From the NCBI RefSeq assembly GCF_041248615.1, contig NZ_CP158426.1: DNA of 64,000 bases. One strand, written 5' to 3'. Of the stretch, positions 1-4,778 are shown in pieces. The position numbers were made by a program, and so were the translations under genes. Position 1 is the first letter of the stretch; each line of letters starts with the position of its first letter. Origin of the DNA: Escherichia coli. Its GTDB lineage: Bacteria; Pseudomonadota; Gammaproteobacteria; Enterobacterales; Enterobacteriaceae. Under the pieces are notes generated by a model, which was given only the letters and a program-made list of their open reading frames with translations, had not been told where the DNA came from and did not search any database.

Positions 1-2001
1 CATTGCGAGGATCCGCGCACCGTGAATATCTTCCACAGGTGCTGGTGTTGCCTGCATTTCATCAAAGAAAGGCGATAAGCGAATATAGGTTGAATCCTCC
101 TGCCAACCGTAGGTATCGGATCGTGCGACGTTAATTTCCTTCCACTCTGCTGTGCCTTCAAAAACTTCTGCGTACTCTTTACGGAACATTTCTGTGGAGA
201 CTTGTTCTACCGCACGGGCAATTTCTTGTGCCGAGGGCCAGATATCTTTCAGATATACCGGGTCGCCTTTACGATCGTGACCAATAGGCTCAGAAGCGAG
301 GTTAATATTCATATTTCCCGCCAGCGCATAGGCAACCACCAGCGGCGGCGAGGCCAGCCAGTTAGTTTTAACCAGCGGATGGATACGGCCTTCAAAGTTA
401 CGGTTGCCGGACAGCACCGCACCGACGGTTAAATCGCCTTTTTTGATTGCCGTTTCGATAGGATCGGGCAATGGACCAGAGTTACCAATACAGGTGGTAC
501 AACCGTATCCCACAAGGTTAAATCCCAGTTCATCCAGATACGGTGTCAGTTTCGCTTTTGCCAGATAATCAGAAACGACTTTCGAGCCTGGTGCCAGCGA
601 CGCTTTGACCCACGGTTGCCGCTTGAGGCCCAGAGTTACGGCTTTTTTCGCCAGCAAACCTGCGGCCATCAGCACACTTGGGTTAGAGGTGTTGGTGCAC
701 GACGTTATCGCAGCAATGACCACCGCGCCATCAGGTAACTGATACTGATGTCCGTTCATAACATAATCGACCGGCTGGCGATCTTTATGCGTGGCATTTA
801 CTTCCAGTTCGTTACTGGCGGCAAATGCTTTTGGTACATCGGGCAGTGCAACGCGATCCTGTGGGCGTTTTGGCCCTGCCAGGCTCGCTTCAACGTCATT
901 CATATCCAGTTCTAACGTACTGGTAAAAATCGGTTCATCGCCCGGGTTACGCCACATGCCCTGCGCTTTGGCATATTTTTCGACCAACTCGACCTGATCT
1001 TCGCTGCGCCCGCTTAAACGCATGTAATCGAGGGTGACAGCATCGATTGGGAAGAAGCCACAGGTGGCACCATATTCTGGCGACATATTGGCAATGGTGG
1101 CGCGATCCGCCAGCGGTAGTGAATCCAGCCCATCACCATAAAATTCGACGAATTTCCCCACCACACCATGTTTGCGCAGCATTTGGGTAACGGTGAGAAC
1201 CAGGTCTGTGGCGGTAATACCTTCACGTAATTTTCCGGTGAGTTTAAAGCCCACTACGTCTGGGATAAGCATGGAAACCGGCTGACCTAACATTGCGGCT
1301 TCTGCTTCGATCCCCCCCACGCCCCACCCCAGCACGCCAAGGCCGTTGATCATGGTGGTGTGCGAGTCAGTACCAACGAGTGTATCCGGATAAGCAATCC
1401 ATTCACCGTCCTGCAATTCGCTCCACACTGCTTTGCCGAGATATTCGAGGTTAACCTGATGGCAAATGCCTGTGCCTGGCGGCACGACGCTAAAACGACT
1501 GAACGCCTGCTTTCCCCATTTCAGGAACACATAACGTTCGTGGTTGCGCTCCATTTCCAGGCGCACGTTTTCTTCAAATGCCTCATCATCACCAAAACGA
1601 TCGACGGTCACCGAGTGGTCAATGACCAGGTCGACCGGTGAGAGCGGGTTAACCTTTGCAGTATCGCCACCGAGGCGTTTAACCGCTTCGCGCATTGCCG
1701 CCAGATCAACAACGGCAGGTACGCCGGTAAAGTCCTGCATCAGCACCCTTGCCGGGCGGTAGGCAATTTCACGGTCAGCATGGGCATTTTTCAGCCATCC
1801 CGCCAGCGCGTGGATATCCTCTTCGGTAACCGAGTTACCATCCTGCCAGCGCAGCAGGTTTTCGAGCAAAACTTTGAGTGACTTGGGCAGACGGGTGATA
1901 TTGCCCAGTGATTTGGCAGCAAGCGGCAGGCTGTAGTAGTGGTAAGTTTTATCTTTGGCCTGCAACGTGTCCTTACTGGCTTCTCGTAGGGTTGACGACA
2001 T
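1..2001 (-). CDS. acnA: Aconitate hydratase A, partial (C-terminal end lies beyond the window start)
   Basis: Reverse-strand reading frame runs from an ATG at 2001 (N-terminus MSSTLREAS...) to the window edge with aconitase-like translation; synteny next to cysB. Not in the ORF track because it is truncated by the window. Confidence 0.93.
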
Positions 2002-2164
2002 AGCTCCTCCTTAATGACAGGGTTGCGACGCCCTGATTCTCTTCAGGGTGAATATTAAAGATAACACAAACATCGCGTAACGATTTGATAACAACCCAAA
2101 TTGATAAAAGAGGAGAAACCTTGTGGCAAAGCAAATGAAAACCCCGCCGCAGCGGGGTCAGGTA

Positions 2165-2260
2165 TCAGTGAGTAATGATCCAGAGGAATTCGGCCCAGAA
2201 GAGCATCGACAGAGAAAACGCGCCCATCCAGGACCAATATTTCATATTTGTGTTGATCAT
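2165..2260 (-). CDS. Small hydrophobic protein, 31 aa (MINTNMKYWSWMGAFSLSMLFWAEFLWIITH), about 160 bp upstream of acnA
   Basis: Short reverse-strand ORF with one predicted transmembrane segment, below the 60-aa track cutoff; resembles the small membrane proteins annotated upstream of acnA in K-12 (ymiA/yciX family region), exact name not certain. Confidence 0.4.
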   Translation of the reverse strand: MINTNMKYWSWMGAFSLSMLFWAEFLWIITH

Positions 2261-2373
2261 AGGCTACACCTTTAACGGTTATTACTTTGTGTTGAGATAA
2301 CTCAACCTGTTATTGCTGCGGTGTATTAAAAGCCCTTTAATTCATTAAAAATGGGTAATAAGAATGATGATAA

Positions 2374-2541
2374 TTATTGTTTCGGCTGATCATCTTCAGC
2401 AAACAGTTCTATAAAGGCTTGCTGCTGCGATGTTAGTTGCCAGTCGTCTGGAATAACGACGGAACATTCCCGTTTCGTTTCTGTGTCATTGTCACTATGC
2501 TGGCATAATGGTGACGACTCCAGTTGCTCCTGACCGACCAT
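2374..2541 (-). CDS. yciX: Small acidic protein YciX-like, 55 aa
   Basis: Track ORF 2374..2562; the internal Met at 2541 gives a 55-aa product (MVGQEQLESSPLCQH...) matching the size I recall for YciX; lies upstream of acnA. Confidence 0.5.
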   Translation of the reverse strand: MVGQEQLESSPLCQHSDNDTETKRECSVVIPDDWQLTSQQQAFIELFAEDDQPKQ

Positions 2542-2543
2542 AG

Positions 2544-2672
2544 TTATCCCCACACTTTCCAAATCAGCAGTGCGACAACCACCCAGAAAAGTGCAGAACC
2601 AAGAAAAACCGCCAGCCAGGCTTTACGTTTTAATTCAGGATCGCGGCGGGGTTCCTGATTTCCAGAAGGCAT
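2544..2672 (-). CDS. Small single-pass membrane protein, about 42-46 aa (…KAWLAVFLGSALFWVVVALLIWKVWG)
   Basis: Reverse-strand ORF whose TAA stop (2546..2544) sits 2 nt before the yciX ATG (2541), suggesting translational coupling; GAGG Shine-Dalgarno upstream of the Met at 2672; alternative start at 2684. Confidence 0.4.
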   Translation of the reverse strand: MPSGNQEPRRDPELKRKAWLAVFLGSALFWVVVALLIWKVWG

Positions 2673-2917
2673 TGCTAACCTCATATAATCGCCATCACTT
2701 ATCAGCAAGACGTTGAACGATTGGTGTAATTAATCATACGATGAGACAAATCCTAAAGAAACTTTAGTCAAAAATCCAGCGAATTTACGAATCGTCTCCA
2801 GTGAATAATTCAATCTTTTGACCTGAAATAGATATTTGAAAACTGGAATTTGCGAGGCGGGTAATTAGACACTACTTTACAGGTAATTTACCCTATAAAT
2901 ATGAGGGATAAAAATAT

Positions 2918-2926
2918 TGTGCACGG
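2918..2926. repeat. Left copy of 9-bp target-site duplication TGTGCACGG flanking IS1
   Basis: Exact 9-mer directly abuts the IS1 left end and is repeated at 3695..3703. Confidence 0.9.
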
Positions 2927-2981
2927 GGTGATGCTGCCAACTTACTGATTTAGTGTATGATGGTGTTTTTGAGGTGCTCCA

Positions 2982-3257
2982 GTGGCTTCTGTTTCTATCA
3001 GCTGTCCCTCCTGTTCAGCTACTGACGGGGTGGTGCGTAACGGCAAAAGCACCGCCGGACATCAGCGCTATCTCTGCTCTCACTGCCGTAAAACATGGCA
3101 ACTGCAGTTCACTTACACCGCTTCTCAACCCGGTACGCACCAGAAAATCATTGATATGGCCATGAATGGCGTTGGATGCCGGGCAACCGCCCGCATTATG
3201 GGCGTTGGCCTCAACACGATTTTCCGCCATTTAAAAAACTCAGGCCGCAGTCGGTAA
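2982..3257 (+). CDS. insA: IS1 InsA (transposition repressor / N-terminal part of the transposase)
   Basis: 91-aa [42 protein letters not shown]... characteristic of IS1 InsA. Confidence 0.95.
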
Positions 3258-3679
3258 CCTCGCGCATACAGCCGGGCAGTGACGTCATCGTCTGCGCGGA
3301 AATGGACGAACAGTGGGGATACGTCGGGGCTAAATCGCGCCAGCGCTGGCTGTTTTACGCGTATGACAGGCTCCGGAAGACGGTTGTTGCGCACGTATTC
3401 GGTGAACGCACTATGGCGACGCTGGGGCGTCTTATGAGCCTGCTGTCACCCTTTGACGTGGTGATATGGATGACGGATGGCTGGCCGCTGTATGAATCCC
3501 GCCTGAAGGGAAAGCTGCACGTAATCAGCAAGCGATATACGCAGCGAATTGAGCGGCATAACCTGAATCTGAGGCAGCACCTGGCACGGCTGGGACGGAA
3601 GTCGCTGTCGTTCTCAAAATCGGTGGAGCTGCATGACAAAGTCATCGGGCATTATCTGAACATAAAACACTATCAATAA
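3176..3679 (+). CDS. insB: IS1 InsB (transposase catalytic part, made as InsAB' fusion by -1 frameshift)
   Basis: 167-aa ORF overlapping insA in the -1 frame; characteristic IS1 InsB sequence. Confidence 0.93.
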
Positions 3680-3694
3680 GTTGGAGTCATTACC

Positions 3695-3703
3695 TGTGCA
3701 CGG
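3695..3703. repeat. Right copy of 9-bp target-site duplication TGTGCACGG flanking IS1
   Basis: Exact repeat of 2918..2926 immediately after the IS1 right end. Confidence 0.9.

Positions 3704-3779: not shown

Positions 3780-4778
<999 letters not shown>

Follow-up and report, generated by a model that had tools for sequence, protein, structure and literature searches.

The 64,000-nt stretch of Escherichia coli DNA analysed here (the window) raises the question of whether a run of short open reading frames between an insertion sequence and the aconitase gene acnA represents genuine genes and, if so, what the products may do and whether they take part in the control of acnA. From upstream to downstream, all on the minus strand, the locus comprises topA, cysB, IS1, three short ORFs, a GC-rich hairpin with a T-run and acnA, which positions the cluster between cysB and acnA (Table 1). 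A preliminary description had claimed three small ORFs of 31, 55 and about 42 aa between the IS1 and acnA, and three minus-strand ORFs are present there in the sequence. Since chance ORFs of such size are abundant in 64 kb, their existence alone proves nothing; the three are lifted above chance by cross-genus conservation with coding-type substitutions together with matches to curated families.

Table 1. Features of the cysB–acnA interval, in positions of the window.
Feature	Position	Strand	Description and basis
cysB	3780-4754	minus	
IS1	2927-3694		flanked by perfect 9-bp target duplication tgtgcacgg
Conserved non-coding blocks	2714..2840	minus	upstream of ymiA; cross-genus nucleotide alignment
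ymiA	2544..2684	minus	46 aa, MRLAMPSGNQ...WKVWG; RefSeq CDS in identical genome
ymiA-yciX junction	2539..2553	minus	TGG GGA TAA CT ATG
yciX	2374..2541	minus	ATG start, 55 aa; RefSeq CDS
ymiC-leader hairpin	2291..2306	minus	GUUGAG-UUAU-CUCAAC; consensus fold, compensatory changes in several genera
Rfam RF02079 STnc180 match	2131..2333	minus	ymiC leader, ORF and terminator
ymiC	2165..2260	minus	ATG start, 31 aa, MINTNMKYWSWMGAFSLSMLFWAEFLWIITH; RefSeq CDS
Intrinsic terminator	2131..2159	minus	stem GACCCCGC/GCGGGGUU then UUUUCAUUUG; terminator scan
acnA	ATG at 2001	minus	

The three short ORFs are real genes, already catalogued as ymiA, yciX and ymiC, and the feature as a whole is known and curated. 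E. coli NRZ14408 matched the sequence with 100% identity and K-12 DH1 with 98.9%, and the RefSeq annotation of both genomes labels the three ORFs ymiA, yciX and ymiC, with the product names 'YmiA family putative membrane protein' for ymiA and 'small membrane protein YmiC' for ymiC. In RefSeq the yciX product goes under 'protein YciX' or 'YciX family protein'. The names guessed earlier (ymiA, yciX 'and related entries') agree with this annotation on identical sequence, while the attribution to K-12 has to be corrected: gene content and order are shared with the K-12 locus (b4522, b4523 and the ymiC gene added in 2018), but the strain is not K-12, which has no IS1 at the place where it lies here, 243 bp upstream of the ymiA start. 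In comparison with K-12, YmiA was identical, YciX carried the change E19D (vs DH1) and YmiC the change L25F (vs MG1655). A megablast search with positions 1900-3000 found the region at a coverage of at least 80% in 5,381 of the 5,426 complete E. coli genomes. The remark that such ORFs are easy to miss was justified, these being genuine small-protein genes overlooked by standard 60-aa ORF tracks. Reading of the raw sequence thus recovered three genuine small-protein genes, which makes the result mainly a positive control, with nothing new to claim.

Translation of all three small proteins is backed by published expression evidence: ribosome footprints and epitope tagging had been proposed as a check, and published ribosome profiling, tagging and mass spectrometry (MS) support translation (PMC4909307, PMC6001520, PMC12529367). 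Conservation of the frames across Enterobacteriaceae was followed in the regions upstream of acnA of other species, gathered with the AcnA N-terminus as an anchor; the matches listed include neither Salmonella nor Klebsiella. Among the matches listed, the cluster was present between cysB and acnA in two Citrobacter, four Enterobacter-like genomes, Pseudocitrobacter, Superficieibacter and Mangrovibacter, with ymiC missing in both Citrobacter and in Mangrovibacter and yciX missing in Superficieibacter; also among the matches listed, it was absent from Serratia, Rahnella, Acerihabitans and Providencia, where cysB abutted acnA, and from Photorhabdus, Pectobacterium and Yersinia. Judged by their substitution patterns, the ymiA and ymiC frames are under purifying selection across nine other genera. 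The ymiA core had a pN/pS of 0.28, with mean pairwise differences of 0.25, 0.15 and 0.52 at codon positions 1, 2 and 3 of the codon alignment, and ymiC a pN/pS of 0.39 in frame vs 0.87 and 1.43 in the shifted frames (7 genera), with respective differences of 0.37, 0.23 and 0.54 and a dN/dS of about 0.12 with Jukes-Cantor correction. Shifted-frame controls of the same codon alignments gave pN/pS values of about 0.9–1.8. Both frames are therefore constrained, as the preliminary description had required of real genes, and lineage-specific losses do occur.

YmiA is a basic, single-pass membrane peptide with a pI of 10.9. It scored 125.9 bits against Pfam PF22868 (cut-off 27) and 96.8 bits against NCBIfam NF000536 (cut-off 30), the 42-position model of the latter matching residues 5-46. 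The transmembrane segment corresponds to residues 24-42 (Kyte-Doolittle 2.54) and is preceded by a basic KRK cluster, with K19, R20, K21, A22 and W23 invariant in 10 genera. Its abundance was estimated by targeted MS as ~1000-3000 copies per cell (PMC12529367), a YmiA-GFP fusion localised to the membrane, and overproduction of the peptide led to a long lag and longer cells (PMC11429745).

The position of the YmiA N-terminus deserves a separate consideration, since in-frame starts are available at 2672 (ATG, 42 aa), 2684 (ATG, 46 aa) and 2708 (TTG, 54 aa), and the annotation changed over time from 42 aa in 2006 to 54 aa (TTG) in 2014 (PMC4909307). The length of about 42 aa given in the preliminary description corresponds to the superseded 2006 annotation; the curated length is 46 aa, backed by published ribosome profiling (TetRP), in which the ATG for 46 aa gave the main initiation signal, and by the MS peptide LAMPSGNQEPR, according to which translation begins upstream of the 42-aa start, M5 (PMC4909307). 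The 42-aa form is the conserved core. M5 and its GAGG Shine-Dalgarno were invariant, and every species compared had at least one extra in-frame ATG upstream. A constrained coding extension upstream of M5 was considered and ruled out, the 12 codons concerned having a pN/pS of 0.75 and no third-position excess, although the MS peptide demonstrates their translation in E. coli. Because these codons carry no coding-type constraint, the exact N-terminus of YmiA may vary by species, or two isoforms may be made.

YmiC is a small hydrophobic membrane peptide, the gene of which has a Shine-Dalgarno AAGGTG 6 nt upstream of the start. It scored 84.6 bits against Pfam PF23694 (cut-off 27) and 63 bits against NCBIfam NF041484 (cut-off 42). 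The earlier suggestion that two of the ORFs encode hydrophobic single-helix peptides stood for YmiA with its clear transmembrane segment and, as to hydrophobicity, for YmiC, whose best hydropathy window reached 1.48. In previous work, the protein was detected through chromosomal SPA tagging (VanOrsdel et al. 2018, PMC6001520), ymiC was also an unexplained positive in tetracycline-inhibited ribosome profiling (PMC6001520), and a YmiC-GFP fusion was found in the membrane (PMC11429745).

By sequence comparison, YmiA and YmiC appear to have homologous membrane helices, and the two peptides look like paralogues. A tblastn search with YmiA matched the ymiC ORF of Enterobacter cloacae, and hhalign aligned YmiA 17-39 to YmiC 5-27 without gaps, with a probability of 90% and a score of 28.2, while column-shuffled controls had means of 9.3–9.6 and a maximum of 18.2. 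The real score was reached in 0 of 600 shuffles, so that composition alone is an insufficient explanation for the match. In several genomes the family HMMs found each other's ORFs with E values of 1e-5 to 1e-2 and almost nothing else, and YmiA-like was the sole non-self family touched when YmiC orthologues were compared with 24,736 Pfam families. The pattern common to both is K-x3-W-x3-F-x2-S-x-LFW. In the library-wide profile search, 42 YmiA-family clusters were obtained, some of them with just 26-30 aa. We did not find this homology stated in the publications considered; it is a modest addition and not a new kind of system. With such a helix in common, the two peptides may have the same target or assemble into a heteromer.

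At the junction between the first two genes the ymiA stop (2546-2544) is followed by the yciX ATG (2541-2539) after a gap of 2 nt, without overlap of the ORFs in E. coli, precisely as had been described for the stop of the 2544..2672 ORF. The final Trp-Gly codons of ymiA carry a Shine-Dalgarno-like GGGG with an anti-SD duplex of -5.5 kcal/mol and a 5-nt spacer. Of 9 genera, 8 have the yciX start at -1 to +3 nt from the ymiA stop and Mangrovibacter has it at +8 nt, and in a metagenomic relative the two ORFs overlapped by 19 nt. This is the anatomy expected of termination-reinitiation, and the cross-genus geometry supports the coupling suggested in the preliminary description. Ribosomes terminating at ymiA would translate yciX, which would tie the output of both genes together. 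A similar arrangement is known from mgtS-mgtT and yriA-yriB, which are also neighbouring small ORFs of one operon with stop and start a few nucleotides apart (PMC11429745). The present locus departs from those pairs in that its E. coli ORFs leave a gap of 2 nt and that the second of them encodes a soluble acidic protein instead of another small peptide.

The conserved non-coding blocks upstream of ymiA probably represent the promoter/regulatory region of the operon. In a study of low-Mg2+ stress, ymiA-yciX-ymiC was described as an operon, and reporters demonstrated low-Mg2+ induction and PhoQ-dependent transcription from the region upstream of ymiA, while the region directly upstream of ymiC had negligible promoter activity (PMC11429745). 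A weak PhoP-box-like repeat with 11-bp spacing was noticed at 2743-2770, together with a TATGAT hexamer at 2733-2738. A search with the PhoP consensus (T/G)GTTTA-N5-(T/G)GTTTA, allowing up to 3 mismatches, returned sites at 2743-2759 and 2754-2770, each with 3 mismatches, which by themselves carry no information at such stringency. The whole window contained 190 matches at this threshold vs about 150 by chance, and the candidates upstream of ymiA could not be told apart from chance occurrences. Because a convincing PhoP box was not found upstream of ymiA, the PhoQ dependence could be indirect.

The yciX ORF is the ATG-started portion of a 62-aa TTG ORF, and its orthology to K-12 is evident from 54 of 55 residues shared with the DH1 protein at an identical gene position. 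The protein is acidic and soluble, with a pI of 4.05, a net charge of -9 and no hydrophobic segment. Comparison with Pfam, NCBIfam and PDB sequences gave nothing significant, and neither Pfam nor NCBIfam holds an HMM for the YciX family. A 'CSLinker' match was weak, occurred in only 2 of 10 members and was disregarded; a likeness between LTPQQQAFI and helix 1 of HTH domains of the LuxR type or of terminase small subunits was considered and dropped, there being no profile match. It could be argued that yciX is a poorly constrained, non-functional ORF, kept through its position between two selected genes and its overlap with regulatory DNA. The N-terminal 30 residues are almost unconserved, the pN/pS is 0.55, the search for a family model or structural relative was negative, the gene is absent in Superficieibacter, and AlphaFold confidence is low apart from one helix. 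We nevertheless regard such a status as unlikely, in view of the intact ORF of 50-61 aa which starts at the conserved junction in 8 genera and in one metagenomic contig. Its mean pairwise differences at codon positions 1, 2 and 3 (codon alignment) were 0.46, 0.41 and 0.62, with the highest variation at the third position, and the C-terminal motif IPxxWxL(T/S)xQQxAFIxxFxEDD includes five invariant columns of the protein (counting M1, W34, Q40, F43 and I44 together) and three near-invariant ones (P31, L36, F47). The one helix which AlphaFold predicted confidently, at residues 38-51, had a pLDDT around 90. YciX thereby reduces to one conserved helix, which offers a defined motif for mutation.

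The other questions concern the downstream end of the cluster, where a terminator stem follows the ymiC stop at a distance of 5 nt and precedes the acnA start by ~130 nt. The terminator fold has an energy of -16.4 kcal/mol and a z-score of -2.6, and 6 of 7 genera retain it with compensatory changes. The ymiC leader, ORF and terminator together gave a full-length, high-scoring match to STnc180, a Salmonella candidate sRNA (RF02079), with 198.8 bits in cmscan vs a gathering score of 50 and the whole model covered. If the ymiC segment were chiefly a regulatory RNA, the 31-codon ORF within it would be incidental; apart from the match itself, this would agree with the conservation of both the leader hairpin and the terminator and with the origin of the STnc180 cDNAs from deep sequencing of Salmonella Hfq-bound and total RNA (Sittka et al. 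2008). Such an interpretation is highly improbable in our opinion. The ymiC frame is under the purifying selection described above, and the YmiC protein was detected through its chromosomal tag (PMC6001520) and is membrane-localised (PMC11429745). On northern blots the Salmonella STnc180 formed bands of 500-2000 nt, with no discrete small RNA among them, and a processed mRNA was proposed (Sittka et al. 2008); an mRNA beginning in the conserved blocks ahead of ymiA and ending at the terminator would measure about 600 nt. Moreover, of the 6 other loci with ymiC, 5 were matched by the STnc180 model, and no locus without ymiC was. What is catalogued as an sRNA has here as its core the ymiC coding sequence and terminator, so that a selected and expressed ORF lies inside and the segment does not qualify as an sRNA that is discrete and non-coding. 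Within the operon mRNA, the Rfam 'sRNA' STnc180 is the portion belonging to ymiC, and for curators the entry is essentially the ymiC mRNA. An additional RNA role beside coding may exist for the ymiC segment.

The closeness of ymiC to acnA invites another explanation, according to which ymiC is a uORF in a long acnA leader and ribosomes that stop at its end, 5 nt short of the stem, hinder folding of the terminator hairpin. Translation of ymiC would in this way set how many transcripts started at the ymiA promoter or at acnA P1 read through into acnA. The acnA promoters P1 and P2 are reportedly located at about -407 and about -50. P1 would presumably lie at about position 2408, inside yciX towards its 3' end, and P2 would follow the ymiC terminator, overlapping no small ORF. 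A Fur-site cluster, predicted at -371 of acnA by a published information-theory scan, falls on the yciX stop, at about position 2372. Together with a single orientation of all genes, the short distance to the acnA start and a stop-to-stem spacing that in Enterobacter and Superficieibacter is likewise confined to about 5-10 nt, an upstream P1 and the Fur-site cluster would favour such a leader. However, many ordinary genes end with a terminator close to the stop, and although the ORF and the terminator 5 nt apart are present, a competing antiterminator structure was sought in the cross-genus consensus fold and none was found. Besides, acnA is kept without ymiC in Citrobacter, Mangrovibacter, E. 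albertii and most other Enterobacterales, and its own proximal promoter is said to lie downstream of the terminator. An effect of ymiC translation on read-through into acnA is unlikely from these sequence features, and we rate the uORF explanation as a whole as very unlikely. A combined version, in which YmiA and YmiC are diverged tandem duplicates and ymiC in addition is a translated switch for read-through into the stress aconitase gene acnA, is likewise improbable. If it were true, AcnA expression would be connected, through the ymiC switch, with PhoQP/Mg2+ signalling or with the activity of acnA P1.

The whole is best explained as the known operon ymiA-yciX-ymiC with its own promoter region and terminator, an explanation that we consider very probable; in addition, yciX would be coupled and the products would act as membrane-protein modulators. 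In this operon YmiA (46 aa) and YmiC (31 aa) are single-pass inner-membrane peptides, the basic N-terminus of YmiA facing the cytoplasm, and YciX is a 55-aa acidic, mostly disordered cytoplasmic protein with one conserved C-terminal helix, through which it may dock. By analogy with MgrB, MgtS and PmrR, our best guess is that the three products modulate one or more membrane proteins during the PhoQP envelope/Mg2+ response. MgrB, MgtS and PmrR are, similarly, single-pass inner-membrane peptides of less than 50 aa induced at low Mg2+. Their targets are PhoQ for MgrB, MgtA/PitA for MgtS and LpxT for PmrR. As with these three, overproduction of YmiA prolongs the lag (PMC11429745). In Pfam and NCBIfam, YmiA and YmiC have no sequence similarity to the MgrB, MgtS and PmrR families, and the likeness is one of possible action, not of membership.

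A single obligate complex of the three products is disfavoured because the genes are lost individually and because strains deleted for ymiA alone or for ymiC alone showed no phenotype (PMC11429745). The losses of single genes and of the whole cluster imply that each part can be dispensed with on its own and that the three may not work as one complex. In the type strain of E. albertii a clean natural deletion has removed all three genes: part of the block upstream of ymiA and, at the other end, the terminator of ymiC are kept, and ~556 bp between them are lost.

The IS1 insertion at 2927 was found in 1 of the 5,426 complete E. coli genomes and was missing from the other 5,425. Separate IS1 copies were observed elsewhere in the same intergenic region of other strains, in one of which ymiA was annotated as frameshifted.

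YmiA and YmiC, encoded by the first and the third gene of the ymiA-yciX-ymiC small-protein operon (2544-2684 and 2165-2260, respectively), could be aligned without gaps over their transmembrane cores in a profile-profile comparison of the two families (alignments A1 and A2; hhalign probability 90%), and the score of the real pair was reached by none of the 600 column shuffles. The two proteins also have a motif in common, K-x3-W-x3-F-x2-S-x-LFW. The gapless core alignment, the hhalign result, the shuffling control and the common motif together suggest that ymiA and ymiC are products of an old tandem duplication inside the operon.

The cluster is older, and more widely distributed, than the set of genera sampled by genome would indicate, since the E. 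coli gene order (cysB, YmiA-like, YciX-like, YmiC-like ORF, acnA) was retained in a more distant relative represented by a metagenomic contig (L085, 628-1233), in which the YmiA-like gene of 52 aa and the YciX-like gene of 61 aa overlap by 19 nt. The type strain of E. albertii, NBRC 107761 (one genome examined), is a natural triple deletion: about 556 bp holding ymiA, yciX and ymiC are absent, while part of the upstream block of ymiA and the ymiC terminator are kept (L004, 2742-3000). A stand-alone YmiA-family gene of 42 aa was found outside the cysB-acnA locus in GCA_005217455.1 (L088, 3001-3129), approximately 0.9 kb from a homologue of pagP, a classic PhoP-activated gene; the proximity of the two genes may be significant or may be coincidental. 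A single database protein of 109 aa (P0037) combines a YmiA-like N-terminus with the YciX-like C-terminal motif WTLTPQQRAFIDAL in one chain, probably reflecting a frameshift or a mistake in assembly and not a genuine fusion.

The DNA upstream of ymiA includes two non-coding blocks (examples of their sequences: CAAwTATTTATTTCnGGTCAAAAGATTGAAT and TTAGGATTTnTCTCA), whose conservation exceeded that of the yciX coding sequence. Further upstream lies a complete IS1, flanked by a perfect 9-bp target-site duplication, tgtgcacgg (2918-2926 and 3695-3703). Of 5,426 complete E. coli genomes, a single one, that of strain NRZ14408, carried the identical insertion, which is therefore recent and strain-specific. 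Independent IS1 copies at differing positions were found in the same spacer in two other E. coli strains, NZ_AP045764 (L083) and NZ_CP084900 (L084), with approximately 109 and 55 bp, respectively, between the end of the transposase CDS and ymiA, the latter gene being annotated as frameshifted in NZ_CP084900. The AT-rich cysB-ymiA spacer looks like a recurrent IS1 target. A promoter scan revealed TTGGCA within the left end of IS1, followed 16-18 bp on by AATATT/TATTTT in the flanking DNA and directed toward ymiA; judged by its consensus match alone, this could be an IS1/flank hybrid promoter made by the insertion.

Features of the acnA-cysB intergenic region
Feature	Position	Strand	Remark
PhoP-box-like match TGTTTGTGTTATCTTTA	2056-2072	-	2 mismatches
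STnc180 (Rfam; listed as enterobacterial sRNA)	2131-2333	-	ymiC coding sequence, leader and terminator
AT-rich stretch AATAATTATCATCATTCTTATTA	2352-2378	-	at yciX stop codon
Two non-coding blocks upstream of ymiA	2714-2840	-	nearly invariant from Escherichia to Mangrovibacter
Predicted promoter	2913-2940	-	possible IS1/flank hybrid
IS1, complete, 768 bp	2927-3694	+	between cysB terminator and ymiA upstream region

The AT-rich stretch at the end of yciX coincides with a published cluster of predicted Fur sites at -371 of acnA, for which the authors reported that Fur repression of acnA was not seen in microarrays (PMC2189734). The top PhoP-box-like match of the acnA-IS1 region was located just upstream of acnA (approximately -55 to -71 from its ATG) and not upstream of ymiA, and it may well be due to chance. 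Finally, the Rfam STnc180 is essentially the ymiC coding sequence plus its leader and terminator. A new label for the database entry could be that of a fragment of an mRNA, or of an RNA with a possible dual function.
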